Of a stretch of DNA of 56,818 bases, positions 211-34,705 are shown in pieces. The notes beneath the pieces were generated by a model. The model searched no databases. It was not told the origin of the DNA and was given only the letters and a program-made list of their open reading frames with translations. The stretch covers positions 1-56,818 of the forward strand of contig CALXLP010000006.1 in NCBI GenBank assembly GCA_944389225.1, written 5' to 3'. Origin of the DNA: an uncultured Clostridia bacterium. GTDB taxonomy: Bacteria; Bacillota; Clostridia; TANB77; CAG-508. Position 1 is the stretch's first letter; the number at the start of each line of letters is the position of its first letter. The position numbers were made by a program, and so were the translations under genes.

Positions 211-417
211 TTTCATTAAGTCAGATACTTAATGAAAGATTTAAAGAAGCTACTTTTATGATTATTTATATATTTTCAGCCTATTTTTATCTTATCTTTT
301 TTCCCTTTTACATATTCATTTATTTTGATAAATATCTCTTAAAAACACTTGATTTTCTTTGCAATTATGATATAATTTTTTTAGTAAAAAATTCATTGAG
401 TATCTGACTCAATGAAT
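211..417. promoter_or_regulatory. Putative invertible promoter switch 1 (OFF orientation)
   Basis: Left site TTTCATTAAGT-CAGAT-ACTTAATGAAA (211-237); right site ATTCATTGAGT-ATCTG-ACTCAATGAAT (391-417); cores are reverse complements; + strand promoter TTGATT(349-354)-16-TGn-TATAAT(371-376) points away from pilin gene. Confidence 0.75.
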
Positions 418-440
418 TTATTTTTTTCTTTTTGTATCGT

Positions 441-1976
441 TTATTCACATGTTAATCTTCCATCATTTCCTATCTTCCATAATTTCCATCCTTGTTCTAT
501 TAATTTATTATTCTGTATATATGTATTTAAACTAGTTATTACATCTTGAATATCTTCCATTTCAAATACTGTGATTTCTGTTTCTGCTTCATTACTTCCT
601 GTTACCTTTTCTATATTATTTAACATAAAGGAATTGGTTAATTCATATTTTTCTTGATTTTGCCAATATATAAGATCCATTCCACATATGCCTCCTGCAT
701 AAGAGGTAGATTGTATTTCTCCTGTATTCACACAGTTTTGTATAATCAATGTTTGTCGATTTAATCCTGTTATTCCACCTGCTCCACCAAAATACCATAT
801 ACTTCTATTTCCATCATATATAATGGTTCCACCATTTATACAATTTTTTATTTGCGTACTTTCTGTATTGTTACTGCCAGTATTTCCACATAATCCTCCC
901 ACACCATAATTTCCACTTGCGCTAGATTTTATTGTTCCTTCATTTATACAATTTAACATTTCTCCTGTAAATTGGTCTCCACAAAATCCACCAACTGCTG
1001 ATGTTGATTCTATATTTCCCAAGTTCACACAATCCCTTATGTTTAATTGACCTGTACACCTTCCTATTATTCCTGCCGCTACACCACCATATATCTTAAC
1101 ATCACTCATAATATTTTCAATTTGACTCTTTCCTCCTTGAGAAATAATTCCAGCATTATTACTTTGACTATGTATTTCTCCTTTTACTGTAATATTCTTG
1201 AAATTAGCATTATTTAAAGATAAGATGAGACCTGCATTGTCCTGTTTAGAAATATATAAATTACTGATTACATTTTCATCACCATCAAAATTACCTGAAA
1301 ATTGTTGTATTGGTTTAAATCCTTCTCCACTTTGTAATTCTTTTATTAAACTATCTGTATTTCCATCTTGATTCACATCGCCATAGCCTTTTGTTTCACT
1401 ATTTGCATATGATAATTCTGATTTAAAGTTTAAATTAGTACATAACTTTATATATGCATTCGTATATTGACTATAGTTTTTAGACCATTCCATTAAATCT
1501 TCTATACACCAAATCTCATATGGTTTTTCTTCACTTCCATCTAATGTGTTTCCATCTTTTCCAACAGTAATATCTCCTGGATATTTGTCTTCTATGATTT
1601 CAAAAGCTCCTTCTACATTTCCATCTTTATCTACTGTGTAATATCTGTTACTTTCATGAAATACAACTTCAAATTCATCCCCAGCATCTGATACTTCCGT
1701 TTTTTCTTCTCCTGTTTCCTTATCCAGTTGTTCTTGTAATTCACTTTCTTCGATATTTCCATATTTATTATTTCCCATTGCTTGTACAGTTGCTTTTTCT
1801 ATAATTTCTTTTTCATTTGCAATTACTGTTTCTTCTTTTGCTTGACCTGCATTTCCTATGATTCCATTATCTCCTGTAATAGCACTTATTGTGATTCCTG
1901 CTAGAATTAATAGTACAATAATTGTGATAACTAATGCTAATAGTGTAATTCCTTGTTCTTTCTTTATCTTTTGCAT
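441..1976 (-). CDS. Type IV pilin-like protein with large C-terminal GLUG-like/beta-helix adhesin domain
   Basis: Prepilin-like KKEQG|ITLLALVITIIVLLILAG (no Glu5); PYEIxCIEDL motif, FSGNFDG, repeated 'NCxNxGxI...GGIxG' units. Confidence 0.85.
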   Translation of the reverse strand: MQKIKKEQGITLLALVITIIVLLILAGITISAITGDNGIIGNAGQAKEETVIANEKEIIEKATVQAMGNNKYGNIEESELQEQLDKETGEEKTEVSDAGDEFEVVFHESNRYYTVDKDGNVEGAFEIIEDKYPGDITVGKDGNTLDGSEEKPYEIWCIEDLMEWSKNYSQYTNAYIKLCTNLNFKSELSYANSETKGYGDVNQDGNTDSLIKELQSGEGFKPIQQFSGNFDGDENVISNLYISKQDNAGLILSLNNANFKNITVKGEIHSQSNNAGIISQGGKSQIENIMSDVKIYGGVAAGIIGRCTGQLNIRDCVNLGNIESTSAVGGFCGDQFTGEMLNCINEGTIKSSASGNYGVGGLCGNTGSNNTESTQIKNCINGGTIIYDGNRSIWYFGGAGGITGLNRQTLIIQNCVNTGEIQSTSYAGGICGMDLIYWQNQEKYELTNSFMLNNIEKVTGSNEAETEITVFEMEDIQDVITSLNTYIQNNKLIEQGWKLWKIGNDGRLTCE

Positions 1977-1997
1977 TTTATCTTCTCCCTTCTATAC

Positions 1998-2202
1998 TTT
2001 CTTTTAGTTAAGTACTCTAAGAAATATAGAAAGTTGGATTTTATGCATTATTTAGCCTTTTTACTGTCTTTGTTCTTTTTTATTTTCTATTTTCCAATTA
2101 ATAAATTTTGTCATTTTATTTTTCATTTTTTGTTGATATCTATTATATTTATTGGTATAATCAAGGTACAAAAAAAGTTCTAGAGTACTTAACTCTAGGA
2201 CT
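1998..2202. promoter_or_regulatory. Putative invertible promoter switch 2 (OFF orientation)
   Basis: Left TTTCTTTTAGT-TAAGT-ACTCTAAGAAA (1998-2024); right AGTTCTAGAGT-ACTTA-ACTCTAGGACT (2176-2202) flanked by A- and T-tracts; promoter TTGATA(2133-2138)-17-TGn-TATAAT(2156-2161) on + strand. Confidence 0.75.
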
Positions 2203-2220
2203 TTTTTATTTGTTTCTTAG

Positions 2221-2640
2221 TTAAAATATCTTTGTAAATTGTGTTCCTATCCAAATCCAATAAATTCCTAATCCCACTAATGTTGCCAATACACTCATTA
2301 TTATATATACTTTTGTGCTGATTTTTCCTTTTCGTTTCATATATATATTAATCGGTAGTAATATTAACAAATATACAATTAAAAGAAACATTCCTATCAT
2401 TGCATTTAAACTTTCTTCACTTTCTGGTACATAATATGCACTTCCCTTAGGTTGATTTGAAAAGAACATATAAAATAATATAAAAAATATGGTATCCATA
2501 AATCCCATAAAACCATTAAATATAACAGACAATGTTGATATGATATATTTTTTTGGCTTTTCTTTAAATTTTATCAATCCAATTATTACACAAATCAATA
2601 TATAAATAATTAATCCTGCTAATATTTTTAATAATACCAT
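2221..2640 (-). CDS. Hypothetical membrane protein (about 4 TM helices)
   Basis: 139-aa ORF with four hydrophobic stretches; AGGAG RBS. Confidence 0.7.
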   Translation of the reverse strand: MVLLKILAGLIIYILICVIIGLIKFKEKPKKYIISTLSVIFNGFMGFMDTIFFILFYMFFSNQPKGSAYYVPESEESLNAMIGMFLLIVYLLILLPINIYMKRKGKISTKVYIIMSVLATLVGLGIYWIWIGTQFTKIF

Positions 2641-2771
2641 TTCTTTTTCTCCTAAGTTTTTTCTTATTTTATCATAAAAGCAAAAATTACTCTATACCTT
2701 TTCGATATAAAGTAATTTTTCTATTAGAATCATCAAAATTATTAAATTCTCAAATAGTATTCATATATAGA

Positions 2772-3542
2772 TTATACACCAACAGTTGAGAAACCATTAT
2801 CTACATGAATAATTTCTCCAGTAATAGCACTTGACATATCACTAAATAAAAATGCTGTAGCATTTCCAACTTGATTGATAGTAACATTTTTATGTAATGG
2901 TGCTCTTTCTTCAACAATATCTAATATTGAACCAAAGTCTTTGATTCCTTTAGCTGATAATGTTTTGATTGGTCCTGCTGAAATTCCATTAATTCTATAT
3001 CCATCTTTTCCTAAATCTCTTGCTAAATATCTAATGCTTGCTTCTAATGCTGCTTTAGCAACTCCCATTACATTGTATCCTTCAATTGCTTTTTCTGATC
3101 CATAATATGTATATGCAACAATGCTTGCTCCTTCATTTAACATTTCTTTTTCTCTTGCCATTCTAACAATAGCAACTAATGAATAAGCACTTACATCTTG
3201 TGCATGTGCATAGCCATCTCTTGATGTTAAGATAAAATCATTTCTTAAATCTTCTGTGTTAGCATGTGCAATAGCATGTAATAATCCATCGATTTTTCCA
3301 TGATCTTTTTTAATTTCTTCTAAGCATTTATCTATATCTTCGTCTTTACTTACATCATTACATACATAAACACTTGCTCTTGGCATATCTTTTACTAAAT
3401 CTTTTACTTTATCTACACTATCTGCTGAACAAGTACAAATAACTTCTGCTCCTTGTTCATAAGCTGATTGTGTTGCTCCCCATGCAATACTCCATTTGTT
3501 TCTTACTCCCATAATTACTACTTTTTTACCTTCTAATAACAT
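2772..3542 (-). CDS. fabI: Enoyl-ACP reductase FabI
   Basis: GVRNKWSIAWG, YNVMGVAKAALE, SAGPIKTL motifs. Confidence 0.93.
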   Translation of the reverse strand: MLLEGKKVVIMGVRNKWSIAWGATQSAYEQGAEVICTCSADSVDKVKDLVKDMPRASVYVCNDVSKDEDIDKCLEEIKKDHGKIDGLLHAIAHANTEDLRNDFILTSRDGYAHAQDVSAYSLVAIVRMAREKEMLNEGASIVAYTYYGSEKAIEGYNVMGVAKAALEASIRYLARDLGKDGYRINGISAGPIKTLSAKGIKDFGSILDIVEERAPLHKNVTINQVGNATAFLFSDMSSAITGEIIHVDNGFSTVGV

Positions 3543-3663
3543 TTTAAATTCCTCCTAATTTATATTTTTATTGTATAGAAAAATCAGCTTTTCTATGTTT
3601 ATCTTATATAAGTACAAGCTTTTTTCATATACAACAAGATTAATCTTTTTTATATGTTATATT

Positions 3664-4455
3664 TTAGCACATTGTTCTAAATTTTTCATATCTGTTTTCT
3701 ACTAATTCTTTTTTAGATAATGTGTTTAATTCTTTTAAACTTTTTTTAATGTATGATTTTAATTCTTTTAGAACCATTTCTATATCTTCTTGTGCACCAC
3801 CTTCTGGCTCTTTTATAATTTTGTCAATGATTCCAAAATCTTTTAAATCTTTAGCAGTAGACTTCATATCTTCTGCTGCTTCTTTTGCTTTACTTGAATC
3901 TTTATATAAGATACTAGCAAATCCTTCTGGTGATAAGATGGAATATACTGCATTTTCTAACATAGCAATTCTATCTCCCACAGCGATTGCCAATGCACCA
4001 CCACTAGAACCTTCTCCAATAACAATACAAATGATTGGTACTTCTAGTTTTGACATCTCAAATAGATTTCTAGCAATTGCTTCACCTTGACCTCTTTCTT
4101 CTGCTCCCATTCCAGGATATGCACCAGGTGTATCAATAAAGGTGATAATTGGTCTATTGAATTTCTCTGCTTGTTTCATTAATCGTAATGCTTTTCTATA
4201 TCCTTCTGGATTTGGCATTCCAAAATTTCTTTCCATATTTTCTTTTGCTTTTTTTCCTTTTTGTTCTCCTATTACGGTGACTGGCATACCATCAAATGTT
4301 GCAATTCCTCCAACAATTGCTTTATCATCTCCGAAATTTCTGTCACCATGTAATTCCATAAAATCATCAAATAGTCCATTGATATAATCTAATGCTTTTG
4401 GTCTATCCATTTTTCTTGCTAACATTACTCTATCCCATGCTGTTATTTTTGCCAT
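3664..4455 (-). CDS. accA: Acetyl-CoA carboxylase carboxyltransferase alpha
   Basis: [35 protein letters not shown]. Confidence 0.95.
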
Positions 4456-4471
4456 GTTTCTTCCTCCTTTT

Positions 4472-5317
4472 TTATTTGTGTAGTCTGATTAATTTTGCAA
4501 TTGTTGATTTCATATCTTTTCTTTCTACTATTTTATCAATAAATCCATGTTCTAATAAAAATTCTGAACTTTGGAATCCTTCTGGTAATTTTTGATTAAT
4601 GGTCTGTTCTATAACCCTTGGTCCTGCAAATCCAATTAAGGCATGTGGTTCTGCTAAAATGATATCTCCTAAGCTTGCAAAACTTGCTGTTACACCACCT
4701 GTTGTTGGATCTGTTAAGACAGATATATATAATTGTCCTGCTTTATCTAATTTGGTAAGTGCACTTGATGTTTTCGCCATTTGCATTAAAGATATCATAC
4801 CTTCTTGCATTCTAGCACCACCTGATACACAGAATATAATTAATGGCAATTTCTTTTTAGCTGCTGTTTCAATTGCAAGTGTAATTCTTTCTCCTACTGC
4901 TGATCCCATACTTCCCATTAAAAAGTTTCCATCCATAACAGCCAAAACTGCTTTTTCTCCTTCTATTTCACATGTACCACATTTTACAGCTTCTTCTATT
5001 TTTGTTTTTTCTTTTAACATTTCTACTTTTTTCATATATCCTTTAAAATTCAATGGATCTTTTGTATGAATATCTCCACCAATTTCTTTAAAGGTTCCTT
5101 CATCTGCAATTTGTTTAATTCTTCTTCTTGATGATAATCTAAAATGTTTGCCACAGTTTGGACACACACTCAAATTTTGGTGTAAATCGTCTTTATAGAT
5201 AATTTCTTTACATTTATCACATTTTACCCATTTTCCAATCATCATATCTGAAGCTTTTTCATTCTTGACTCTCTTTTCTTCCTTTTCGTTTACCTTTTTT
5301 ACTTTGTCTATTACCAA
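4472..5317 (-). CDS. accD: Acetyl-CoA carboxylase carboxyltransferase beta
   Basis: Zn finger CDKC...[35 protein letters not shown]. Confidence 0.95.
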
Positions 5318-5465
5318 GGTATTTCCCTCCTTTTATATCTTTGTTATTATATATGTATTTTGAATTTATTTCAACTAGGATAAGTAGTCAATTTTTTGTT
5401 AAAAGAGAATAAAATCAATAGATGAAATAAGAAATTAGCATTATAATTGCTAATTTCTTTTTCTA

Positions 5466-6809
5466 TTACATATTAAATTCTTTTTTTATAAAAGATGTGT
5501 CATAATTGTTTGTTTTAAAGTTTTCATTTTTTAGTATTTTCAATAAAAAGTCTATATTGGTTGTAATTCCTTCTACAACAAATTCTGCCACTGCACTTTT
5601 CATTTTTGCGATAGATTCTTCTCTATTTTTTCCATGAACAATTAATTTTGCAAGCATAGAATCATATGTAGGTGGAACTGTATATCCACTATATATAGCA
5701 GTATCTACTCTTACACCATTTCCTCCTGGAATATGTAATCCTGTTATCGTTCCTGGACATGGCATAAAGTTTTTATCTGGATTTTCTGCATTAATTCTTA
5801 CTTCCATAGAATGTCCATTAAATTTAATATCTTCTTGTTTATATGTTAATTCTTCTCCACTTGCAATTTTGATTTGTTCTTTTATGATATCTACACCTGT
5901 TACCATTTCTGTTACAGGGTGTTCTACTTGTATTCTTGTATTCATTTCCATGAAATAGAAATCTTTATTTTTGTCAACTAAAAATTCAATGGTTCCTGCA
6001 TTAGAATAACCAATTTCTTTTACTGCCTTTACTGCTACTTCTCCCATTTTCTTTCTAGTTTCTTCATCTAGTATACCACTTGGTGTTTCTTCTAATACTT
6101 TTTGATTTCTTCTTTGTACTGAGCAATCTCTTTCTCCTAAATGGATACAGTTTCCGTGCTCATCTGCTAATATTTGAATTTCCACATGTCTTGGATTTTC
6201 TACAAATTTTTCTAAATAAAGGCTATCATCATTAAAAGATACTTTTGCTTCTTGTTTAACAATATCATATTCTTTTTCTAATTCTTCTTTAGAAAAGGCA
6301 ACTCTAATGCCTCTTCCTCCACCACCTGCTGATGCTTTTAACATAACAGGATATTTAATTTGTTCTGCTAAGTTGACTGCTTGTTCTTTTGAATAGATTA
6401 ATCCATCTGATCCAGGAACAACTGGAACTCCTGCTCTTTTCATCGTTTCTTTTGCTCTTGATTTATTTCCCAACAATTCGATTAGTTTATAGTCTGGTCC
6501 AATAAATTTGATTCCTGTTTCTTGACAAATTTTTGCAAAATTTGGATTTTCTGATAAGAATCCAAATCCTGGGTGAATACTATCTGCACCTGTTAAGCAT
6601 GCTGCTTCTAATATGGCTTTTACATTTAAATAACTTTTATTAGATGGTGCTGGTCCTACACAAATGGCTTCATCTGCTAATTGTACATGTAAGGCATTTT
6701 TATCTACTTCTGAATAAATGGCAACTGTTCTAATTCCCATTTCTCTACATGCTCTGATAATTCTAACTGCAATTTCTCCTCTATTGGCAATTAATACTTT
6801 TTTTAACAT
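5466..6809 (-). CDS. accC: Biotin carboxylase
   Basis: KVLIANRGEIA, HPGFGFLSEN, GGGGRG, EMNTRIQVEH. Confidence 0.96.
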   Translation of the reverse strand: MLKKVLIANRGEIAVRIIRACREMGIRTVAIYSEVDKNALHVQLADEAICVGPAPSNKSYLNVKAILEAACLTGADSIHPGFGFLSENPNFAKICQETGIKFIGPDYKLIELLGNKSRAKETMKRAGVPVVPGSDGLIYSKEQAVNLAEQIKYPVMLKASAGGGGRGIRVAFSKEELEKEYDIVKQEAKVSFNDDSLYLEKFVENPRHVEIQILADEHGNCIHLGERDCSVQRRNQKVLEETPSGILDEETRKKMGEVAVKAVKEIGYSNAGTIEFLVDKNKDFYFMEMNTRIQVEHPVTEMVTGVDIIKEQIKIASGEELTYKQEDIKFNGHSMEVRINAENPDKNFMPCPGTITGLHIPGGNGVRVDTAIYSGYTVPPTYDSMLAKLIVHGKNREESIAKMKSAVAEFVVEGITTNIDFLLKILKNENFKTNNYDTSFIKKEFNM

Positions 6810-6968
6810 GAAAATTCCTCCTATGAAAGATAATTTATTTTTATATTTTCTATATTCTCTTAAAAAAAGACAGCTTACATACTGTCTTTTATACCTTATA
6901 TATTATATATTTATTTTTTATTTTTTTCAAGCTAGGATAGGTGGTCAGTAATTATCGATTACTTTCCT

Positions 6969-8051
6969 TTATTTCCAGTTTTCTGGAATTTCACTATAAT
7001 TTGTCAAATTCTCACATCCTGTATAACATGCATTTCCACTAATACCACTTCTTTCCCATAAAGGTATGGCATTTCCAGTCAAAGATGTACAGTTATAAAA
7101 TGCATTGTCTGCATTTTTAATATTAGGACAATTATCAAATAAATCAGATGGAATTCGTGTTAATGATGTACAATTATAAAACATAGCCCTAATATTTGTT
7201 AAATTACCAAAGCTATTTTCTTTTGGAGAAACAATTTCTGTTAAATTGGTACAATTAGAAAAATTAACATTAATCATTTTATTTTCTCCCCAATCTATTA
7301 TTTTTTGTAACGCTGGTGAATTAACTATTATTTGTGTAGCATATATCTTTATATTAAATATTTTATTTTTTTCTTCATATTTATGCATTACTGGTATAGG
7401 AGCCCCTATAACTGCTACAGATATATTATCATTGAAACTAGCTATTTTTTGTGATTTTCCAATTTCAGTCCCTTCTAATTTGCTATATGTTCCATCTCCC
7501 CAATCTATTATTCCATCCATAGAAATCGCTAATAAAACTGTTCCTTTATCTCCCACATTCACATCAATCTTAAAACCTTTTTCTACCTTTTCTCTTTCTT
7601 GTTCTGTTAAATCTGCCACCTCATAAGTAAAATTTTTCATATATTCTTCTTCAGTTTTAATCTCTAAATTTCCTGTTTCATAATTTGATGTAACATAATA
7701 TATATTCCCTGTATCTGAAAATGTTATCATATAGCTGTTATCTACTTTTTGAACAATTGTTTCTCCTTTACCAGCTACACTATCTAATTCTGTTTGTAAC
7801 CCTTGATAATCTTCTCCTACTGTTTCTGGTTCATAATATACTATTCCTAAAGCTGTTAAGGCTGTTTTTATCTGTTCCTCTTCTGTTGCCACAACATTAT
7901 CTTCTTTAGCATTTTGCGCTCTTGTTAATATTCCATTATTACCTGTTAATGTTGCAATTGTTACACCTGCCAATATTAATAATACAATAATTGTAATAAC
8001 TAAAGCTATTAGTGTAATTCCTTTGTTTTTTCTTGATTCTTTTGTTTTCAT
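6969..8051 (-). CDS. Type IV pilin-like protein with PKD-like (IDWGDG) and BspA/DUF285-like LRR C-terminus
   Basis: KNKG|ITLIALVITIIVLLILAGVTI; IDWGDG; repeats 'FYNCTSLT', ends IPENWK. Confidence 0.85.
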   Translation of the reverse strand: MKTKESRKNKGITLIALVITIIVLLILAGVTIATLTGNNGILTRAQNAKEDNVVATEEEQIKTALTALGIVYYEPETVGEDYQGLQTELDSVAGKGETIVQKVDNSYMITFSDTGNIYYVTSNYETGNLEIKTEEEYMKNFTYEVADLTEQEREKVEKGFKIDVNVGDKGTVLLAISMDGIIDWGDGTYSKLEGTEIGKSQKIASFNDNISVAVIGAPIPVMHKYEEKNKIFNIKIYATQIIVNSPALQKIIDWGENKMINVNFSNCTNLTEIVSPKENSFGNLTNIRAMFYNCTSLTRIPSDLFDNCPNIKNADNAFYNCTSLTGNAIPLWERSGISGNACYTGCENLTNYSEIPENWK

Positions 8052-8075
8052 CTCTTCTTTTTCCTCCCTTTTAAC

Positions 8076-8282
8076 TTTCTATTATTTAGTTACTCTAAGA
8101 AATTTACATGTATATTAAAACCTGCTTATAAGTTATTTTTGTTAACATTCTTACTGTTAATTTCTTTCATATTCTCAAAAAATTTTTTATAAAAAAATAA
8201 ATTAAAATCCTATTGACAGCCCTGCAATTTATTGTTATCATAATTGTATGAAATCTTTCTTAGAGTAACTAACTCTAAGATT
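8076..8282. promoter_or_regulatory. Putative invertible promoter switch 3 (OFF orientation)
   Basis: Left TTTCTATTATT-TAGTT-ACTCTAAGAAA (8076-8102); right TTTCTTAGAGT-AACTA-ACTCTAAGATT (8256-8282)+T-tract; perfect 17-bp IR 8086-8102/8256-8272; promoter TTGACA(8213-8218)-17-TGn-TATCAT(8236-8241) on + strand. Confidence 0.78.
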
Positions 8283-8532
8283 TTTTATTAATATTATGTT
8301 TCTTACAAAAGTTCTATTTTTTTATTTATAAGTAAAGCAAAAACCATTTTTTCAACGCAATACTTCCATTTAAGTTTCCTATAAATACAGAGTAAATTAC
8401 TTATTTTTCAGATAGTTTTGATTTACAATTTAAATAAAATTAGCTTATTTTTATATACTGACATTAAATGTCAATACAACAATTACTTCTTTTGTGTCAT
8501 AATTACTTTAAACATTAGTTTAGGGTGATGTT

Positions 8533-8739
8533 ATGATAAAAGAAAAAAGAAAGGCAAAAAAATATACACAAGAAAAAATGTCTGAAATACTAGGAATTAG
8601 TTTGAGACAATATATACGAATTGATAACGAAGAAGATTTACCCAGAAGAGATGTTTTAAAAAATCTGATTTTAGAATTAGAATTAACAGATGAAGAATTA
8701 GGTGAATACATAAGAATTATGGCAAATAAAATAGCTTAA
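8533..8739 (+). CDS. XRE/Cro-family helix-turn-helix protein
   Basis: TQEKMSEILGISLRQYIRID HTH pattern; upstream palindrome TGACAT-TAA-ATGTCA (8459-8473); hairpin 8728-8779 downstream. Confidence 0.85.
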   Translation: MIKEKRKAKKYTQEKMSEILGISLRQYIRIDNEEDLPRRDVLKNLILELELTDEELGEYIRIMANKIA

Positions 8740-8844
8740 GAATATTAAATTATATAATAAAATATTCTTAAGCTATTTTTTATTATATGATGAAAACTAG
8801 TTTTTTATCTTCGCTTACACATAAGTTTCTTCATATACATTATC

Positions 8845-9531
8845 TTATTTTGTTGATATATGTATATTTTCAATTTCTGCATTTAATTCTCTAGAAATAA
8901 TATTTTGTATTTGTGCTACTTCTTCTTGTTGTAATTGTTCTGCTCCAATAATCACACTAATGCTATCTCCATTTACAAAAATAATATTATTAGTAAATCC
9001 TTTTGTACTAATCAAATTCTCACATATCATGATACTATTTTTCGTATCATTAATTTTTTTAATTTCTTCTGTGGCACTTTGTTTTTGCGTTTCTAAGCTA
9101 TTACTACTATTTAATACCTTTTCATAACTTTCTATCATCTGTGAATACATAGTGTCTCTTTCTAGTTTTGATTTTGTAAAATATTCATCTGATGTTACTG
9201 TTGCACTTGTTTGTGCTACTGTATTAGCTGTACTATTTTCTGTTGTGTTATTGTCTTGTGTCATATTTGTATCAGCCATTGTATTTGTTGTATCTGCTGT
9301 TACATTTTCTTCTACTTCATTTTCACTAACTGCTTCACTATTTACTAATGTAGCATCTCCAATATCAGCAATTTGCATATCATCATTTGCTTCCATTTCC
9401 ATAGCTGTCTGTGTAGATACTTGCTCTGCTGTATTGGTAGTATAATTCAAATATCCAGCAGTCACTAACATTAAGGCAATAACATAAATAATTACTTGAT
9501 TTTTCTTCAATAAGCCTTTCATTATTTTCAT
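8845..9531 (-). CDS. spoIIIAH: Stage III sporulation protein AH
   Basis: N-terminal TM 'LMLVTAGYLNY', YFTKSKLER, ENLISTKGF; last gene of spoIIIA cluster. Confidence 0.88.
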   Translation of the reverse strand: MKIMKGLLKKNQVIIYVIALMLVTAGYLNYTTNTAEQVSTQTAMEMEANDDMQIADIGDATLVNSEAVSENEVEENVTADTTNTMADTNMTQDNNTTENSTANTVAQTSATVTSDEYFTKSKLERDTMYSQMIESYEKVLNSSNSLETQKQSATEEIKKINDTKNSIMICENLISTKGFTNNIIFVNGDSISVIIGAEQLQQEEVAQIQNIISRELNAEIENIHISTK

Positions 9532-10916: not shown

Positions 10917-10924
10917 AACTTCCC

Positions 10925-14574: not shown

Positions 14575-14627
14575 AGTCCTGTCCCTTTTGGACAAAAAAT
14601 GTCCATTTTGACACGTCCCTAACGTTT
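14575..14627 (-). repeat. REP-like dispersed repeat copy B (overlaps stop of 14619..16568)
   Basis: agtcctgtcccttttggacaaaaaatgtccattttgacacgtccctaacgttt. Confidence 0.85.
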
Positions 14628-16568
14628 ATTAATAACTGCTCTATAAATTAGTCCTGTATTAATATCTTTTTCAAATTCTACCCTATATGCGTCATCTACA
14701 TTGATACTACTTTTTAACAGTGTAATATTTTGTTCATTAACTTCATATTCCTCTCCATCCATGTTGATTTCTTCTATTTTGTTATTTCCTTCTGTTTCAT
14801 TGTTATTTTGAATAGTTGTTAATAATCCTTTGACTGTTGCTCCTTTGGTATTTGTACTTTGATATAATTCAAATTTTGCATTAAATGCATTTACTGCTTG
14901 TTCATCGATTTCTGTGGTTGTTTGACTTGATACTAAAAATGCTGGTATTAGGTATTGAATTGGATTTTGATCTTCAGATACTCCCAATTCTTCCATTTGT
15001 ACTTGATTAACTTCTACCATTCTTTCTTGTATAGCATTCATTAAATTACTAACATATTCGTTGTCTTTATCATTTAGGATAACTGCATTATTTTCTGTTA
15101 AATCCTCTATTGTCACTCCATCTTTAAATTGTACATTGTTTGTTACACTATATTTATTTTGACTGGTTGTCTTTTCTGATGTATCATTTGAAGTTTCGTT
15201 TATTGTTGTTTCTTCTGGCTCTTCAACAATTTTCCCTGTGTTATCTATAACAAATCTGTCTCCCGTACTAACAAATGTAATATTAAATGTTGTATCAGTT
15301 TCTTTTTCTAAACGCATATCTGCATATATCTCATTTTCTCCTGATGATAATTCTTCTTCTACATTTGTATCGCTAATTTGTGTACTATCTTCTCCTGCTG
15401 CTATTTTATTTGCTTGAACAGTTGTTATTAATGACTCAATTGTTTCCCTCTCACTTGAAATATCTAATGTATCTTGTGAATTTTCTGTTCTTTCCTCTGC
15501 ATTAGTCTCTTCATACTTTCCTTCTAACGTTAGCTCATATGTTTCTGTTACGCTATCAGAAGCTAACCCAGCATATTTTGCTGTAAATACAGCATTTGTA
15601 TCTTGTTCATCCGCATTTAATGTTGCTGTGTAGGTTATATCTTGTCCATTTTTTTCTTTATTCATTACTAATGTAATTCCCGAACTTCCTACATCCATTC
15701 TACTAAGATTGCCTCCTGTAGCATATACAGTCATTTCAATATCATTATTTAATTCCCACTCATTAATACTTTCTATAACATCATCTATAGAATCTTCGTT
15801 TAATTGTGTATTAGTTCCTATCCCTTGTAATATTTCATTTAATTTATGTGTTGTATTGGCATCTGTCTTTAATACATTTAAAATTTGAATCAATGTATTC
15901 TTCAGTTCTTCACCTGTTAGTGTTAGTCTATATCCTGTTAAATCTCCTTCTGTTAATGTTGAAAACTTATTATCATCTAATGTATTTAATATATTATCAA
16001 AATAAGTTGTTTTCAAATTTTGTATTTCTTCATCAGAAAACTCTACATTTTGTAGTTTTAATATATTATTTATATCTTCTAGTCCAGATATTTCTTCATC
16101 ATTTCTAACAGCTACAAAACTACTTCCAATATATTGCGTTTGAATTCCTGTTACAGTATTTGTTTTTCTATATGTTAATGGAAAATTGACACTATCTGAA
16201 TAGTTGAGACTAATCTCTTTTTCTGATTTTGAATCATTCGGAACTTCTTTTCCTGAAAAAGTAATATTAAAATTATTGGCCAATTCTAAGTCGTCTTCCA
16301 TATTAGGAATGGATACATCAAATGTTATCTCTCCATTATTTTCATAGCTTGTACTACTCTTTTTTTGGAAATATTGCATTAACTGATTATCAATAAATCC
16401 ATCTTCACTTTGCACAATCTGTGAAGTATATTTGAAGAATAACTGTTTATTACTCTTAAACATATCTGTGAAAAAATATAAATATGCTACGACACCCACT
16501 AAAAGTAGGATAATAACTAACAAGATAATAACTGTTATTAACAAGCTTTTACTTTTCTTTTGTCCCAT
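14619..16568 (-). CDS. Membrane-anchored acidic surface protein with an internal pilin-head-like segment
   Basis: Likely start MGQKKSK (GGAGG RBS); single N-terminal TM; internal segment resembles post-helix domain of the pilin-like proteins. Confidence 0.7.
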   Translation of the reverse strand: MGQKKSKSLLITVIILLVIILLLVGVVAYLYFFTDMFKSNKQLFFKYTSQIVQSEDGFIDNQLMQYFQKKSSTSYENNGEITFDVSIPNMEDDLELANNFNITFSGKEVPNDSKSEKEISLNYSDSVNFPLTYRKTNTVTGIQTQYIGSSFVAVRNDEEISGLEDINNILKLQNVEFSDEEIQNLKTTYFDNILNTLDDNKFSTLTEGDLTGYRLTLTGEELKNTLIQILNVLKTDANTTHKLNEILQGIGTNTQLNEDSIDDVIESINEWELNNDIEMTVYATGGNLSRMDVGSSGITLVMNKEKNGQDITYTATLNADEQDTNAVFTAKYAGLASDSVTETYELTLEGKYEETNAEERTENSQDTLDISSERETIESLITTVQANKIAAGEDSTQISDTNVEEELSSGENEIYADMRLEKETDTTFNITFVSTGDRFVIDNTGKIVEEPEETTINETSNDTSEKTTSQNKYSVTNNVQFKDGVTIEDLTENNAVILNDKDNEYVSNLMNAIQERMVEVNQVQMEELGVSEDQNPIQYLIPAFLVSSQTTTEIDEQAVNAFNAKFELYQSTNTKGATVKGLLTTIQNNNETEGNNKIEEINMDGEEYEVNEQNITLLKSSINVDDAYRVEFEKDINTGLIYRAVINKR

Positions 16569-16675
16569 AAAAACCTCCATTCGAGTCATATACTCTAATA
16601 AATTTTAAGTATGATATTTCTTATAATATAAATAGATAAATAACTGTATTCCTACTGTCATTTATCTATTTTCCT

Positions 16676-25288: not shown

Positions 25289-25444
25289 ATATTTCTCCCT
25301 TCTTCTGTATATTTTATCATAGTTGTATCATATTTTTATCAATTTGTATAGCCTATATTTTTTCTTATTCAACAAAAAAATGTACATAAAATTAACAAAA
25401 TTTTATGTACATTTTTTACCCCTTTTATTTTATATTATTTTTCT

Positions 25445-26245: not shown

Positions 26246-26401
26246 AAAAATACCTCCTTCTATTTTTTCAAACTCATTATATACAAAACTTCTATATTTT
26301 TACAATATATTATAAAATTTTTTTATATTTTTTTATCAATTTGTTTTATTTCTATTTTCTTGTGGTATAATGATAAATGAATTTTAACAAAAGAAAGGGA
26401 G

Positions 26402-29026: not shown

Positions 29027-29037
29027 TGAAAATGTAT

Positions 29038-29112
29038 CAAAATGGACAGAGCTTATTTCAAGTTCTGTCCATTTTTACTATTTTTGTCCATTTTGACACG
29101 TCACCAACGTCC
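29038..29112. repeat. Degenerate REP-like copy / bidirectional hairpin between mgtA and yfcE
   Basis: aaaatggacaga...tctgtccatttt hairpin followed by tgtccattttgacacgtc shared with copies A/B. Confidence 0.6.
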
Positions 29113-29120
29113 ATTTATTT

Positions 29121-29663
29121 TTACTCTTTATATCTATATTCTTCTATCACATTTCCATCAACATCTTTTATGACAATATCTTTTTCTTCTATCATTGCAT
29201 AACTATGTGGTGTATTTTCTTTTGGTAATGAGATAGAACCTGGATTTACAAATAATTGATTATCATATTTTTTAATAAAACATGTATGGAAATGTCCGTA
29301 AAACATAATATCAAAATCTTCTGGTGGCAAATTATCTATATTGTATTTATGTCCATGTGTAAAAAACATATTTTTTCCATTAATTTTTTCTAATATATGT
29401 TCTTTTATATCAAATTCAGAAACCATTTGATCTACTTCTGCATCACAGTTTCCTCTTACAACTTCTAGTTTATCTTTTACACTATTTAATACTTTTGTTA
29501 CTTTCATTGGATCATATCCATCTGTTAATGGATTTCTAGGTCCATGATAATATAAATCTCCTAATACAACTATTTTTTCTGGTTTTTCTTTTTTAATAAT
29601 TTCTTTTAATTTGTCAGCATATACACCTGACCCATGAATATCTGATACAACCAATACTCTCAT
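29121..29663 (-). CDS. yfcE: Metallophosphoesterase YfcE
   Basis: SDIHG, LGDLYYHGPRN, VRGNCD, THGH, GHFH, NPGS. Confidence 0.9.
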   Translation of the reverse strand: MRVLVVSDIHGSGVYADKLKEIIKKEKPEKIVVLGDLYYHGPRNPLTDGYDPMKVTKVLNSVKDKLEVVRGNCDAEVDQMVSEFDIKEHILEKINGKNMFFTHGHKYNIDNLPPEDFDIMFYGHFHTCFIKKYDNQLFVNPGSISLPKENTPHSYAMIEEKDIVIKDVDGNVIEEYRYKE

Positions 29664-29791
29664 AAAACTCATTCCTTTCTTCCTTAGCTAGTTTTTGTAT
29701 TTTTTAATTATGATATATTGTAAGATATATTATTATAAAATTCAACCCCTATATAGAAAAAAATGGCATCATTTTTTGATACCACTTCTTT

Positions 29792-30325
29792 CTATTCCAT
29801 CAACTTTTTGATATCTTCATCTTGTTTTAACTTGTTTGATATAAAATGATATGCTTGCTTATTTTGTTTCACAGCAATTTCCGCCAACTCTTTATCATCA
29901 ATCAATCGTTTACTAGCATATTTGATAATAATCCCCTTATTTTCTACTGCTGCTTTTACTACTTCTTTATCATCCCTTAATTCTTCTGATGCATAATATA
30001 ATGCTTGCCCATAATGTTTACAACATTCTAACATAATCTCCTTGTCTCCTGCTAATTCCTCTGATGCATAACAAATGGTCCAAGGTGCTGTTTTAGTAGC
30101 TAATTGTAACACTTCTTTATCTCCTTTTAACCTTGTACTTGCAAATTCTAAGGCTTCTCCATCTTGTTTTAAAGCTTCCATAACCACTTCTTTGTCATCT
30201 TGTAATTCTTCTGATGCCAATTCTAGGTTTTTTCCACTTTCTTTTACTGCTTGTAGGATTATTTCTTTGTTATTACTATTTTTTTGTATTTCTTCTATTT
30301 CCATTTTATCAGTCCCTTTCTTCAA
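29792..30325 (-). CDS. DUF4116-like repeat protein
   Basis: Repeats of 'ALxYASEELxDDKEVVxxAV'. Confidence 0.8.
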   Translation of the reverse strand: MKKGTDKMEIEEIQKNSNNKEIILQAVKESGKNLELASEELQDDKEVVMEALKQDGEALEFASTRLKGDKEVLQLATKTAPWTICYASEELAGDKEIMLECCKHYGQALYYASEELRDDKEVVKAAVENKGIIIKYASKRLIDDKELAEIAVKQNKQAYHFISNKLKQDEDIKKLME

Positions 30326-30695
30326 TCATATACATTATATCACATTTCATTACTAATTCTATATAGATAAATCAATTATTTTAGAATATCTTATCATTAA
30401 AAGATTGTCCAAGAAAAAAAGCTTACATCTGAAATTGCGTGGAGCCTTAAACATGGCTCTTAATGCCTTTGAGAAAAAGAACTTCCGTTACTCATTTGTA
30501 TTTTTGTATTGGCATTTAAAACAGCGTTTTTTAGGGTATTTTTATTAGCTGATGTTGCATCCCCAAATACATACGAAATGAAAATCGCACGAGATTTAAT
30601 CGACTTCTGGTATTCATCGTATAAAAAATCTTCAGCACCATGAGTAATTTTTACTCTAATGGGCTTCAGTATTCGTACTGGAGCCCATTTAAATA

Positions 30696-31493
30696 TTATA
30701 TATACCTTTCTATATCATAAAAATTATTTTCTTCTGTTAACACAATGTCAAAGTTCTTTTTATACACTTCCAAATTTTCTGTAACATTCTTATTTAAAAA
30801 CCCTATTTTTAAAGATTTATTTTCTGGATATTCTCCCATCATATGAATATCTTCAACTAAATCCCCAATCACAATTCTATATTCCTTTTCCTTTATTCTT
30901 TCTTCTACTTTTAAATCTCCTAATTTATCTATATTTTTATTTAATGTATGAATAATATTATCAGAAAATTTTATCATATCTCCATTTTCGTCAAACTTTA
31001 TAAAATTACCAATAATTGTTATGTTGTTATAATAACAATTGTTTTCTTTTAAAAATTGTTCTATTACATTTCCAATACCTGCTGAAAAGATAATTACTGG
31101 TATTTGATTTTCATATAATTTAGAAAGAAAATCTTTTGCTCCTTCTCTTAATTTTAGATAACTATTACTAACGCAATTTTTTAGTTTTTTCCTTGTAAGA
31201 TGATATGTATAATATAAATTCATAGAATTTGTATACCATTCTAACATATATTTTTCTTTTTCTTTCATATCTATCGTATAATCTAATTCTATTGGTCCAT
31301 ATTTTTCATAAAGCTTATTTAAATCATTAGCTATTTCCTGCCCCATTGCCTTTTTATTGGCACTAGTTGCCCAAGAGTCTTCACTATCACTTGATGTAAT
31401 TGTCTTATCATAATCCATGAAAACACATATATTATCTTTATTCATTTTTTCTTTTAGTTCTCTTATTTTGGCTTCATTATTTAGATATATCAT
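30696..31493 (-). CDS. Pyrimidine 5'-nucleotidase (UMPH-1/cN-III-like HAD)
   Basis: DYDKTIT, EKEKYMLEWY, LREG, FSAGIG, IHTLNK, IGDLVEDIHM, LKIGFLN. Confidence 0.82.
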   Translation of the reverse strand: MIYLNNEAKIRELKEKMNKDNICVFMDYDKTITSSDSEDSWATSANKKAMGQEIANDLNKLYEKYGPIELDYTIDMKEKEKYMLEWYTNSMNLYYTYHLTRKKLKNCVSNSYLKLREGAKDFLSKLYENQIPVIIFSAGIGNVIEQFLKENNCYYNNITIIGNFIKFDENGDMIKFSDNIIHTLNKNIDKLGDLKVEERIKEKEYRIVIGDLVEDIHMMGEYPENKSLKIGFLNKNVTENLEVYKKNFDIVLTEENNFYDIERYI

Positions 31494-31519
31494 AAATTTT
31501 CTCCTTATAAATAATACTA

Positions 31520-32434
31520 TTATAATAAATTAATCTGTTCTTCTGTTAAATTTGTTATTTTTTTTATTAATTCTATATCTAATCCTTCTTCTTTCATTTT
31601 TTTTGCTATTTTCTTTTTTTCTTCCGTCTTTCCTTCAGCTTTTCCTTCTTCCATTCCCTTTCTTCTTGCCTCATTTATTTCTGTATTATATGTTAATCTA
31701 CTTCTTTCTCTGATTTCATATAACTCTCTTTCATATTCATCTGCACTCATTTGTGTTAATTGTTCTACTGCTTCTTTAATTTCTTCATTTTCATTTTTAT
31801 ATTCTTCCATCATTTTTTCATCGCCCCCAATTACATATAACCATTTTTCTAGCAAATCTGCCACTTTTGGTTTCTTTTTCTTAAACTTTGGTAATTCAAT
31901 AATATAGTATTTTACCATGTCTGTTAAATATTCTTCCTCTTTTTCATATCCTATATTAACATATCTAATTTCTTCTGTTTTCTCATACTTTAACATGGCT
32001 AAACTTAAATATGCATTTCGTTTTACAACATTATCATTTATAATACATATAACAATTGTATCTTTTGCTTTTTTATATTCTTCTGATACTTTTATTTCTC
32101 CTGCTATTAATTTTGCATTATATACCACTAATCTTCTTTCTATGGCCGTTGTATTCCCCACTTGTAATTTAATATCTATCATTGTGTTATTATTTATTTC
32201 TGCTTTGATATCTAAGATACTTAATTTCTCCTCTATTGCTTCTTTAGGTATTTCTGGATTTTTTATTTCTATCTTTTGTATATCAATTTTTAATATTGCC
32301 TCTAATAAACTTTTTAGAATTTTTTCATTGCCACCTTTTCCAAATATCCTTTTAAATACATAATCATTTGATAATGGTAACATATTTACTTCTTTTATTT
32401 TATTTAAGTTGCTCATGTTTTTTTCTCCTTTCAT
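31520..32434 (-). CDS. Rpn/YhgA-like PD-(D/E)XK nuclease family protein
   Basis: NDYVFKRIFG, LDIKA, IELPKF, C-terminal EEGKAEG...IAKKMK...IKKITNL. Confidence 0.85.
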   Translation of the reverse strand: MKGEKNMSNLNKIKEVNMLPLSNDYVFKRIFGKGGNEKILKSLLEAILKIDIQKIEIKNPEIPKEAIEEKLSILDIKAEINNNTMIDIKLQVGNTTAIERRLVVYNAKLIAGEIKVSEEYKKAKDTIVICIINDNVVKRNAYLSLAMLKYEKTEEIRYVNIGYEKEEEYLTDMVKYYIIELPKFKKKKPKVADLLEKWLYVIGGDEKMMEEYKNENEEIKEAVEQLTQMSADEYERELYEIRERSRLTYNTEINEARRKGMEEGKAEGKTEEKKKIAKKMKEEGLDIELIKKITNLTEEQINLL

Positions 32435-32917
32435 TCTATCAAATTAATTTCTTTTATTCAATAAATCTATTTGAATTTATTAAATGCATTTAGAGCTTTT
32501 TGTTCATATTTTATTTATTTCTTTTTATACATGAAAAATTTATCTTTATCTTTTCTTCTCATAAACTCTATTTGTATTTATAGAAAATTTGGTTTTTTAT
32601 AACATCATAATTAAGCTAAATGTCAAATTATTGATATACAAAATATTAAAACTTCTATAATGGATTTTTAAATGAAATATAAATCTAGATATAAAAATAA
32701 TTTAAAATTAATTTTTAACACAGAATACATAAATGAACTTTTTAAAATGTTTGAATAAAATATTTTATTTTTATAAATATACTCGTTATTTAAGAGCAAA
32801 CTATAAAATTTAACTTGAATATAAATATATTTTAATAAAGGCTTACAAATAAAAAATCTCTAATTGCATTTCCATTATTTTACAATACAATTAGAGATTT
32901 TTCAATATTTTATTTTC

Positions 32918-34447
32918 TTATTTTTCAAATGTTGGTAATCCATTAGCATCTAATTTCCAATTATATAGTGTTACTCCTTTATCTTTATAATCATTTTTAT
33001 GTGCTTCTACATATGCATTTAATTTATCTATTATGCTTTTATCTCCTTTAGAAAATGCTATAGAATTTTCATTTGCTACCACGTTCTCATTTATTATAGT
33101 ATCTAAATAATAACAACTATCTAAATTTACGGTTGCTCCTCCCCATACACAATAGAAATTATAACTACTTCCACTTGGTTTTGAGATTGTTCCTAAGCTG
33201 CATGTATTTATAATATTTCTAGTTCCAGTATTATATGCTCCTCCAATTATTCCACTTGTTCTGCTCTTTCCTATTATTTCCCCTAAATTATAACAATTTA
33301 CTATAATCGTATTTCCATTAATATCATCAAAATTAATAATTCCTCCAACACTATCTCCTTGAAGATTTGCTAAATTACAACAATTTATGATTTCTACATT
33401 TCCCCATACTGAGCCGACAATTCCTCCTAAAGAACTACTACTGTTTATATTTCCAGAAATACATAAATTATACAATTTACTTCCAGAAGCTACTCCTGTT
33501 ATTCCACCGCCTCCTTGACACTCATAATATACATTTACTAAACTTAAATTTTTTAAAGTAGCCGTATATATTGTGTTAAATAGTCCTCCTCCATTTTTTG
33601 TATTCTCATATAAATTCTGAATTTCATGATTTTGTCCATCAAATATTCCTGCAAACATTAAATTTCCTGAACCTGTATTTTCACTAATGGGTACAAATCC
33701 AACTCCATTTCTATCTGTTAATAATTCTCTTAAATTTTGTGTACTATTTTCGTCTATCACATATGCTTCTTCCTCTTCATCATAACGCCATCCAATAGAT
33801 AAATCCGCGTATGATACTGTTGAATTAAAGTTTAAGTTCTTTGTTAGTATAAAATTTTTACCTGAAAATGTATTTCTTACCGCTTCTTTTATTTCTCCAT
33901 TTTCTATATAATTCCCTTTTCCTCTTGATATATTAGACAGTACCACTAAATCTTCTATACATGAAATTTCATATGGTTTTTCTTCACTTCCATCCAATGT
34001 TTCTCCATTTTCTCCTATCGTAAAATCTCCTGGATTTTCATCTTTATTAATCGTATATTCTCCTTCTACATTTCCATCTTTGTCAACTATATAATATCGA
34101 TTACTATCAATAAATATAACCTCAATTCCATCTCCTATATCTGTTGCTTCTGTTTTTCCTTCTCCTGTTTCTTTATCTAACTCACTTTGTAATTCATTTT
34201 CTTCTATATTTCCATATTTGTTATTTCCCATTGCTTGTACAGTTGCTTTCTCTACAATTTCTTTTTCATTGGCTATTTCTGTTTCTTCTTTTGCTCTACC
34301 TGCATTTCCAATAATTCCATTATCCCCTGTTATCGCACTTATGGTAATTCCTGCTAAGATTAATAACACGATAATAGTGATAACTAATGCCAATAATGTA
34401 ATTCCTTCTTGATTTTTTATTTTACTTTTTTGTATATGTTTTTTCAT
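32918..34447 (-). CDS. Type IV pilin-like protein with GLUG-like/beta-helix adhesin domain
   Basis: NQEG|ITLLALVITIIVLLILAG; first ~170 aa closely match 441..1976; divergent C-terminus. Confidence 0.85.
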   Translation of the reverse strand: MKKHIQKSKIKNQEGITLLALVITIIVLLILAGITISAITGDNGIIGNAGRAKEETEIANEKEIVEKATVQAMGNNKYGNIEENELQSELDKETGEGKTEATDIGDGIEVIFIDSNRYYIVDKDGNVEGEYTINKDENPGDFTIGENGETLDGSEEKPYEISCIEDLVVLSNISRGKGNYIENGEIKEAVRNTFSGKNFILTKNLNFNSTVSYADLSIGWRYDEEEEAYVIDENSTQNLRELLTDRNGVGFVPISENTGSGNLMFAGIFDGQNHEIQNLYENTKNGGGLFNTIYTATLKNLSLVNVYYECQGGGGITGVASGSKLYNLCISGNINSSSSLGGIVGSVWGNVEIINCCNLANLQGDSVGGIINFDDINGNTIIVNCYNLGEIIGKSRTSGIIGGAYNTGTRNIINTCSLGTISKPSGSSYNFYCVWGGATVNLDSCYYLDTIINENVVANENSIAFSKGDKSIIDKLNAYVEAHKNDYKDKGVTLYNWKLDANGLPTFEK

Positions 34448-34497
34448 TTTTTATACCTCTTTTCTACATTTTCTTTTGTTTTTAAACTATTTTTTAT

Positions 34498-34705
34498 TTT
34501 CTTTTAGTTTCTTACTCTAAGAAATTGATAATATCTTTCTAACTATTGTTATTGATAGATTTATAGGTATAAACTATAGTAAAAAAGTCTTTCATTTTTT
34601 ATAAAAATTTATCGTTAATTTAAAGAAAATTTTTATTGACATATCCTTACTTTATTGATATGATTTGTATACAAAAGGATTCTTAGAGTAAGAAACTCTA
34701 GGGAT
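34498..34705. promoter_or_regulatory. Putative invertible promoter switch 4 (OFF orientation)
   Basis: Left TTTCTTTTAGT-TTCTT-ACTCTAAGAAA (34498-34524); right ATTCTTAGAGT-AAGAA-ACTCTAGGGAT (34679-34705)+T-tract; perfect 18-bp IR 34506-34523/34680-34697; promoter TTGACA(34636-34641)-17-TGn-TATGAT(34659-34664). Confidence 0.78.

Follow-up and report, generated by a model that had tools for sequence, protein, structure and literature searches.

Probable invertible promoter switches with pair-matched five-nucleotide cores precede putative prepilin-type genes in an uncultured Clostridia bacterium

Results

A family of probable promoter switches upstream of putative prepilin-type genes

Four loci in contig CALXLP010000006.1 of an uncultured Clostridia bacterium (assembly GCA_944389225.1, positions 1 to 56,818; this whole stretch of 56,818 nt is referred to as the window) are likely invertible promoter switches. 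They would belong to a family of at least 20 members in the same genome, located before putative prepilin-type genes and flipped by a tyrosine recombinase acting at paired 25-bp sites, each of which has a 5-nt core between two 10-bp arms. The cores were found to be matched between the two sites of a pair with very few exceptions, and identical cores were repeatedly found at different loci of one genome.

The arms of loci 2–4 in the window followed the family consensus TTCTTAGAGT-N5-ACTCTAAGAA, and those of locus 1 deviated from it (TTCATTGAGT-N5-ACTCAATGAA); all features are listed in Table 1. The eight core 5-mers reported in the initial annotation of this DNA were read at exactly the positions given there, and each of the four cores (CAGAT/ATCTG, TAAGT/ACTTA, TAGTT/AACTA and TTCTT/AAGAA) was the reverse complement of its own partner, as had been claimed. 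The arms of the left site were the same in locus 2 as in locus 4 (TTCTTTTAGT ... ACTCTAAGAA), also in agreement with that annotation. The two sites of each locus are mutually inverted and lie 178–181 bp apart, with 153–156 bp between them. A predicted sigma-70-type promoter (TTGACA-like, N16–17, TATAAT-like) was located in every segment, ending about 15 nt before the right-hand site, and a ribosome-binding site and gene on the minus strand begin directly left of each left-hand site. Since the predicted promoter is directed away from the gene in all four loci, the switches of the window are in the OFF state. Using the pattern AGTN5ACTCTA with at most one mismatch, 29 matches were detected in the window compared with 12.7 expected, and none of the 100 shuffles reached 29.

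Table 1. Sites, promoter-like elements and regulated genes of the four window loci (window coordinates).
Locus	Feature	Position	Strand	Core	Description
1	regulated gene, 5' part	1..191	-		prepilin-type N-terminus (MQKMKKEQGITLL...); runs off the window start
1	gene-proximal site	212..236		222-226	TTCATTAAGT-CAGAT-ACTTAATGAA, variant arms
1	promoter-like element	349..376	+		TTGATT N16 TATAAT; points away from the gene (OFF)
1	gene-distal site	392..416		402-406	TTCATTGAGT-ATCTG-ACTCAATGAA; hairpin, then T run
2	regulated gene	441..1976	-		511 aa, prepilin-type N-terminus
2	gene-proximal site	1999..2023		2009-2013	TTCTTTTAGT-TAAGT-ACTCTAAGAA
2	promoter-like element	2133..2161	+		TTGATA N17 TATAAT; OFF orientation
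2	gene-distal site	2177..2201		2187-2191	GTTCTAGAGT-ACTTA-ACTCTAGGAC, then T run; terminator-like (dG -16.3, 9 U)
3	regulated gene	6969..8051	-		360 aa, prepilin-type N-terminus; weak BspA-type leucine-rich-repeat match
3	gene-proximal site	8077..8101		8087-8091	TTCTATTATT-TAGTT-ACTCTAAGAA, outer arm degenerate
3	promoter-like element	8213..8241	+		TTGACA N17 TATCAT; OFF orientation
3	gene-distal site	8257..8281		8267-8271	TTCTTAGAGT-AACTA-ACTCTAAGAT, then T run
4	regulated gene	32918..34447	-		509 aa, prepilin-type N-terminus
4	gene-proximal site	34499..34523		34509-34513	TTCTTTTAGT-TTCTT-ACTCTAAGAA
4	promoter-like element	34636..34664	+		TTGACA N17 TATGAT; OFF orientation
4	gene-distal site	34680..34704		34690-34694	TTCTTAGAGT-AAGAA-ACTCTAGGGA, then T run

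Size, hosts and anatomy of the family

A scan of the window's own assembly (G000; 109 contigs, 1.72 Mb, 27.8% G+C) resulted in about 20 site pairs. Among the site-bearing relatives, 12 pairs were detected in G010 and 39 sites in G041. When 40 related genomes besides G000 were scanned with the pattern at up to two mismatches, sites were found in one, the same-genus G010, and the reversed-pattern control gave no matches. Exact-consensus scans of public collections yielded 16 metagenome loci; a further 75 came from about 15 assemblies of uncultured Clostridia. The origins of these loci point to chicken and other animal guts. The resulting non-redundant set comprises 93 pairs from 16 genomes and from metagenome contigs, to which the values below refer unless another number is given.

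In this set the pairs are inverted repeats bounding a short segment, with a site spacing of 162–214 bp. The best -35/-10 match reached at least 10.5 of 12.5 (consensus score, predicted promoters) in 84 of the 93 segments, and the predicted -10 element ended 13–17 nt from a site in 80 of the 85 segments with a directional call. Fifty distinct core types were observed on one arm consensus. The site spacing was quantised, with classes at 165.6, 177.7, 190.5, 201 and 213.5 bp and a best-fitting period of about 12.3 bp, which may come from a small recombination loop that has to be in helical phase, or from insertions and deletions specific to lineages.

On the gene-distal side, the site forms a near-perfect palindrome with a T run behind it. 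A simple criterion for terminators was passed by this distal site in 54 of 62 loci and by the proximal site in none of the 62, and the mean number of T residues in the outward 12 nt was 8.3 for the distal and 1.7 for the proximal site. At window locus 1, for instance, the distal site resembles an intrinsic terminator for the OFF-state transcript (free energy change, dG, -14.4; 9 U of 10). The OFF-state promoter thus appears to be insulated from the downstream DNA by a putative terminator built from the recombination site itself.

The same-genus genome G024 (loci L166, L175, L178 and L181) was without TTCTTAGAGT sites and carried a related site family with different arms, GTCGTGAAG-N5-TACTTAACGAC, in which the 5-mers also match within each pair (TACTT/AAGTA, CATTT/AAATG, GATTT/AAATC). 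Five recombinase copies with 47–50% identity to the candidate invertase described below were present in G024, several of them adjoining prepilin genes. The variant arms of window locus 1 are similar to this G024 site family.

Cores are matched within pairs and change in concert

The partners were picked by arm similarity and distance alone, with the core ignored, which avoids circularity. The 101 candidate pairs obtained in this way included 96 without a core mismatch, one with a single mismatch and four with 2–5 mismatches. The last four were rejected as real sites, the 'arms' of the presumed partners having 7–8 mismatches; the true partner in these cases is off the contig or was not found. 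The final set was reached by removing these four false rows, two rows from a record of the same genome as G010 and three duplicates, and by adding window locus 1 by hand. Perfect complementarity of the cores was determined for 92 of the 93 pairs, and the remaining pair, L104, had a single mismatch, so the within-pair matching that had been proposed from the window extends to the genome-wide scale. A second singly mismatched pair, G041:C63, lies outside the 93-pair count. Both mismatches are at an edge position of the core.

The identity between partners was 0.99–1.00 over the core positions and 1.00 and 0.99 at the bases touching the core. It ranged over 0.77–1.00 in the inner arm and 0.36–1.00 in the outer arm. 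With 1.00 in the core and about 0.25 beyond the arms, the sequences alone locate the region of strand exchange.

Related loci differing in their cores were found to have changed both sites together. In the G010 paralogues, TCAAT was replaced by ACAAT or TCCAT at both sites; in loci with similar flanks the core differed at both sites as CGAGT/TGAGT, TGAAT/TGAGT and CATTT/AATTT; and the recently duplicated tandem pair on contig C11 of G000 (CTTTT/CTCTT) differed in one core position, again at both sites. Together with the perfect pairs, this concerted change indicates that the matching is real, specific to the centre of the site and kept through change. The first core base, read at the gene-proximal site on the coding strand, was A in 19 of 19 G000 loci and in 56 of the 63 orientable pairs overall; consequently only about four core positions vary freely.

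Cores are shared between loci

The initial annotation had interpreted the cores as locus-specific addresses that make the switches orthogonal. The part of this interpretation that sees them as recombination sites for one common enzyme, having shared arms and a core matched within the pair, agrees with the results above, but the cores did not behave as locus-specific addresses. The four cores of the window do differ from each other; genome-wide, however, the TAGTT/AACTA core of locus 3 recurs at C1:78333/78499. In total, 18 distinct cores were counted among the 19 G000 loci, two of which share AACTA. Seven loci of G010 share TCAAT/ATTGA, and the flanks of these loci are 87–96% identical over about 500 nt, so they are recent paralogues whose core is shared by descent. 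The CAKNJL genome (G041) contained ATCTC three times and ATTGA and ATTTC twice each, with groups of about 4–5 loci per core among the matches listed, and AAAAG occurred twice in CAJFRV. Two complete TCAAA/TTTGA loci of G041 were located 19 kb apart on one contig.

The diversity between the G000 loci, which had been suggested as a check, was not distinguishable from chance: one identical and 18 one-mismatch locus pairs were observed against 1.8 and 15.9 expected. Under the positional-composition null the probability of as few close pairs was P = 0.66, giving no signal of selection on core dispersion, and 16 of the 19 loci are no more than one mismatch away from some other locus. Each tandem neighbour pair of G000 (window loci 1–2 and pairs on C11, C16 and C24) has two different cores; four pairs carry no statistical weight, and the neighbour test is without power. 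Same-contig neighbours within a few kb in G041 also had different cores among the matches listed. In related loci the core change keeps pace with the divergence of flanks and segment, with no sign of acceleration. It is plausible that different cores insulate the loci from each other as a side effect; a designed orthogonality is unproven.

Inversion and the ON and OFF states

Natural inversion is documented at one family member. In two assemblies (L082 and L117) a 165-bp segment is exactly reverse-complemented between the sites, the flanks being identical over the aligned 60 nt on each side and the proximal flank 99.8% identical over 510 nt. The promoter is beside the gene in one assembly and points away from it in the other. 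Paralogues were also found in both promoter layouts across the family. The orientation was assigned by a gene-based rule, as arm degeneracy alone misclassifies loci with GC-rich variant distal arms. This rule gave an orientation for 63 of the 93 pairs; the promoter direction was clear in 59 of these, which comprised 55 OFF and 4 ON.

G000 has a single switch in the ON state, C1:78333-78523, and its TAGTT/AACTA core is that of window locus 3. The orthologue of this switch from another species (L090) is likewise ON, and the locus may be the family's default expressed member.

Logan contigs of chicken-gut metagenomes were compared with window positions 1–9000. Locus 3 was bridged in four runs and locus 2 in one, always in the orientation of the window, and the joints listed included no change of strand. 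As contigs drop rare variants, these data are uninformative on minority orientations. A contig of run X1 matched the window from base 227, the boundary of core and inner arm at locus 1, and was preceded by unrelated sequence; this other side differs from the expected inverted junction. The contig may represent a paralogous or rearranged locus of another strain.

A break in the G000 assembly, between contigs C18 and C90, coincides exactly with a switch's distal site. The break was considered as an alternative orientation and rejected, the two contigs having merely a 77-nt overlap (1–77 in each) in the same orientation. An assembly-graph branch at this place would fit mixed orientations in the sample.

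A candidate recombinase

Seven matches to Phage_integrase and one to Resolvase were detected in G000. The likely enzyme acting on the sites, a candidate by co-occurrence, is a tyrosine recombinase of about 310 aa encoded at C18:1908-2841, just downstream of a switch-controlled prepilin gene. The intact G010 orthologue matched Phage_integrase (PF00589) with 116.1 bits (cut-off 27.1), and the pieces of the G000 gene with 60.6 and 50.8 bits. The stretches LRIGE, HVLRHTFAT, LGH and NRYVH are visible in the translation; by the motifs of the family, they may hold the catalytic Arg, His-x-x-Arg, His/Trp and Tyr. The best match to a solved structure was Tn1549 Int, with an E value of 2.6e-22 over residues 142–310. 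No transposon context of the gene was seen in the genome stretches read.

In 15 of the 16 site-bearing genomes, the sites are accompanied by a tyrosine recombinase. Among 41 related genomes, an orthologue of the C18 enzyme with 85% identity was found solely in the site-bearing G010; the other homologues included three with 47–54% identity, and the rest had 38% or less. In the further site-bearing genomes the enzyme was present in 13 of 14, with 69–93% identity, the exception being a 1.2-Mb assembly. The gene adjoins a switch-controlled prepilin gene in G000 and G049, and the context in G043 is uninformative, as the contig ends 1.1 kb upstream of the recombinase. Given its varied contexts, the C18 recombinase looks like a global enzyme. 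The 327-aa recombinase of contig C15 was also considered as the invertase and was rejected, since it is conserved with or without sites. Its identity was 70–96% in most same-genus genomes searched and 49–62% across the order, and by this distribution it looks like a housekeeping Xer-like enzyme.

The reading frame of the candidate invertase gene (C18:1908-2841 and loci L034, L035 and L137–L150) breaks at a poly-T run of 9–11 T that is conserved. The gene is out of frame in 12 of the 15 carrier genomes, including G000, the shift needed differing by genome, and in frame in three: G010 with T9, G048 with T10 and G047 with T11. A slippery tract that gates the enzyme by DNA or transcriptional slippage fits these data better than an assembly error.

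Regulated genes and pilus machinery

All four window products begin with K-rich leader-G-ITL(L/I)ALVITIIVLLILAG, a putative prepilin-type N-terminus. The N_methyl profile matched the locus 1 fragment with 21.0 bits, just below the cut-off of 21.2, and gave no match for the other three proteins. The usual Glu at +5 of this motif is missing from the window proteins. In the protein of locus 2, GG(I/F)CG-like motifs recur within a large C-terminal domain, and the protein matched no Pfam or NCBIfam family; for the large C-terminal parts of the window proteins (360–511 aa) in general, no family was matched except the weak leucine-rich-repeat hit of locus 3. A prepilin peptidase (Peptidase_A24, 73 bits) and PilB/PilT-like ATPases (T2SSE, 342.8 and 150 bits) are encoded in G000.

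Other elements of the window

A site-like sequence, CCATTCGAGT-CATAT-ACTCTAATAA, was found at window positions 16577-16601, at the start of a 656-aa minus-strand open reading frame (14619-16589). No partner was detected within 140–215 bp, and the sequence may be a relic half-switch or a chance occurrence. A palindromic element of about 356 bp at 41803-42158 has 72-nt terminal inverted repeats (90% complementary) and nested perfect 30-nt repeats. Its ends are unusually G+C-rich for G000, and a similar G+C-rich fragment was found upstream of the switch at C16:1852. The element looks like a miniature inverted-repeat element. An Rfam scan of the window matched no family.

Discussion

In the proposed mechanism, a segment of about 140–170 bp with a sigma-70-like promoter would be inverted between its two 25-bp sites. 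The C18 tyrosine recombinase, encoded elsewhere in the genome than the window, most likely binds the arms, and the strands would be exchanged at staggered cuts flanking the core. The overlap is probably 7 bp, T-N5-A, including the invariant flanking T and A. As a core of odd length is never self-complementary, the site has polarity and an inverted pair can only invert. In the OFF state the promoter would fire into the gene-distal site, whose palindromic arms and T run would form a terminator-like hairpin with the core as its loop.

The identity of the two cores would be kept either by a requirement of the enzyme or by inversion and replication copying one core into both sites. A heteroduplex overlap would, after one round of replication, give daughters each with two cores of the same type; such a passage from heteroduplex to homoduplex is described in PMC5871717. 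Since matching would follow from inversion and replication, the within-pair match does not prove an identity requirement, and the same process would explain how a point change spreads to the partner. Between loci the core would be otherwise unconstrained, drifting nearly neutrally, being inherited by paralogues and changing in concert at both sites. Different cores probably lower the cross-recombination between loci as a side effect and would form neither a complete nor a demonstrably selected code.

Several observations weigh against a family of switches flipped by the C18 enzyme. No second orientation of the four window loci was seen in the Logan contigs of chicken-gut metagenomes (window 1–9000), and two pairs, L104 and G041:C63, carry a core mismatch. 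The 5-nt spacer falls short of the usual 6–8 bp overlap if the flanking T and A are left out. The context of the recombinase gene was unrelated to a switch in four of the seven genomes examined. The gene being out of frame, the enzyme may be rarely made in G000.

The alternatives concern either the role of the core or the nature of the sites. It is rather improbable that the cores are selected orthogonal addresses, with strict core identity and each locus, or at least each neighbour, kept on a different core so that deletions and inversions between loci are avoided. The large number of cores (18 among 19 G000 loci; 50 types among 93 pairs) and the differences in all four G000 tandem pairs would be expected in this case, as would those between same-contig neighbours within a few kb (among the matches listed) and the one-position difference at both sites of the C11 duplicates; moreover, most tyrosine recombinases need homology in the overlap, as stated in PMC5871717. 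The common occurrence of the same core at different loci of one genome (seven times in G010, also in CAKNJL and CAJFRV), in one case in complete loci 19 kb apart on one contig, argues against addresses, and so do the random dispersion of the G000 cores (P = 0.66; 16 of 19 loci within one mismatch of another) and a core change paced with flank divergence rather than accelerated. In addition, the concerted single-base changes would imply recombination or conversion across one mismatch, and cores one base apart would then not be fully orthogonal. The opposite possibility, that core identity is unneeded, is less likely than not. The enzyme would tolerate heterology like the Tn916/Tn1549 integrases, the matching would be a footprint of past inversions, and the loci would be kept apart otherwise, e.g. 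by phased short-range looping. Tn1549 Int, the closest solved structure, needs minimal homology according to PMC5871717, and replication would resolve a heteroduplex overlap into two matched lineages. The coexistence of same-core loci in one genome is consistent with such tolerance, and so is the quantised spacing, which would be expected of a small loop dependent on phase. However, the similarity to Tn1549 Int is distant and confined to the catalytic domain, and free exchange between loci should homogenise the cores, other site features being equal, yet most loci differ. The two mismatched pairs, both with the mismatch at an edge position of the core, are compatible with either model.

That the switches are flipped by a serine invertase of the Hin/Mpi type, for which the central dinucleotide would be the relevant match, is very improbable. 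G000 does contain one Resolvase-family gene (C3:87140-87916), and the master invertase of Bacteroides fragilis, Mpi, is a serine recombinase (PMC5903667). This gene is followed by a second open frame, though, and would be more like a large, possibly split, sporulation-type recombinase; it is the tyrosine recombinase that tracks the sites across genomes, and all five core positions are matched, not two alone. We consider it extremely improbable that the palindromes are plain terminator hairpins or operator sites and that the pairs are coincidental or RNA-level elements. The terminator-like distal site in 54 of 62 loci and the single orientation of the window loci in the Logan contigs would agree with this, but the proximal site is without a T run (0 of 62) and still matches the core and inner arm of a partner about 180 bp away. 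The promoter adjoins either site in different loci, no Rfam family was matched in the window, and the exact inversion between L082 and L117, bounded by the two sites, contradicts this explanation.

Many independent promoter inversions under one recombinase are an already known kind of system. In Mycoplasma penetrans, the mpl (P35) family comprises 38 genes, most with their own invertible promoter, and one tyrosine recombinase (PMC2268961 and PMC3599477, citing Horino 2003 and 2009). The present family resembles it in having dozens of dispersed and tandem surface-protein genes, a probably independent inversion of small promoter segments and a candidate global tyrosine recombinase. Unlike the mpl lipoproteins, the products here are prepilin-type proteins of another phylum, and the candidate recombinase is of another lineage. 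In the mpl family, short repeats may form hairpins. RecV of Clostridioides difficile is a tyrosine master recombinase that inverts a number of short segments, promoters or other regulatory DNA, among the separate Cdi1–Cdi7 loci; the Cdi inverted repeats differ as a whole, and the authors take these differences to suggest additional recombinases (PMC5903667). A tyrosine recombinase in Clostridia and several short promoter segments are features of RecV that the candidate enzyme here would share. In contrast to the about seven RecV sites with repeats differing as a whole, 20–30 sites per genome were found here, with shared arms and the core alone differing. Mpi of B. fragilis inverts at least 13 scattered promoter regions controlling surface structures (PMC5903667), but it is a serine recombinase with another site architecture and regulates polysaccharide loci.

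The combination of shared arms and a variable central spacer is like that of the engineered heterospecific lox and loxPsym sites of Cre (PMC10850332, PMC11260471), which are meant to recombine solely where the spacers are identical; the initial annotation had drawn this comparison. The lox variants are engineered and exclusivity-tested, with 13-bp arms and an 8-bp spacer, whereas here many cores differ by a single base and some are common to several loci. For Tn1549 Int, PMC5871717 describes AT-rich repeats of about 11 bp around a crossover region of 5–7 bp, with a critical terminal T, and recombination across non-homologous crossover regions of that length. The arrangement ...AGAGT-N5-ACTCT... 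resembles such a Tn1549/Tn916 site, i.e. a repeat-end T and a short crossover. Tn1549 Int moves a conjugative transposon; the protein here, unlike it, has about 310 aa, is chromosomal and tracks invertons. What is new in the present system is the host group and the family of genes under control, together with very regular arm/core sites carrying 50 core types, a site that would double as a terminator, and a recombinase gene that is interrupted. In the literature searched, which covered few subscription journals, no description of locus-specific cores in natural invertons was found, and this is weak evidence that the idea is unpublished.

The family is an unusually large and regular example, with 20–30 switches per 1.7–2.2-Mb genome, all before pilin-like adhesin candidates, in uncultured Clostridia common in chicken guts. 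It makes testable how a master recombinase with dozens of sites avoids scrambling the genome, and the material for this exists in nature: matched and mismatched pairs, same-core loci on one contig, 50 cores, and in-frame and out-of-frame alleles of the enzyme. The most far-reaching version, in which one small tyrosine invertase with strict core identity serves at least 50 natural 5-nt cores, 20–30 switches per genome are largely self-insulating with selection mainly on close neighbours, and the enzyme itself is poly-T-gated, appears unlikely to us. If core identity is required, the system would offer a compact recombinase with many natural heterospecific sites for synthetic biology; if it is not, the quantised spacing would point to loop geometry as the insulating principle. 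The poly-T gating of the master invertase, if true, would be a switch controlling the switches.

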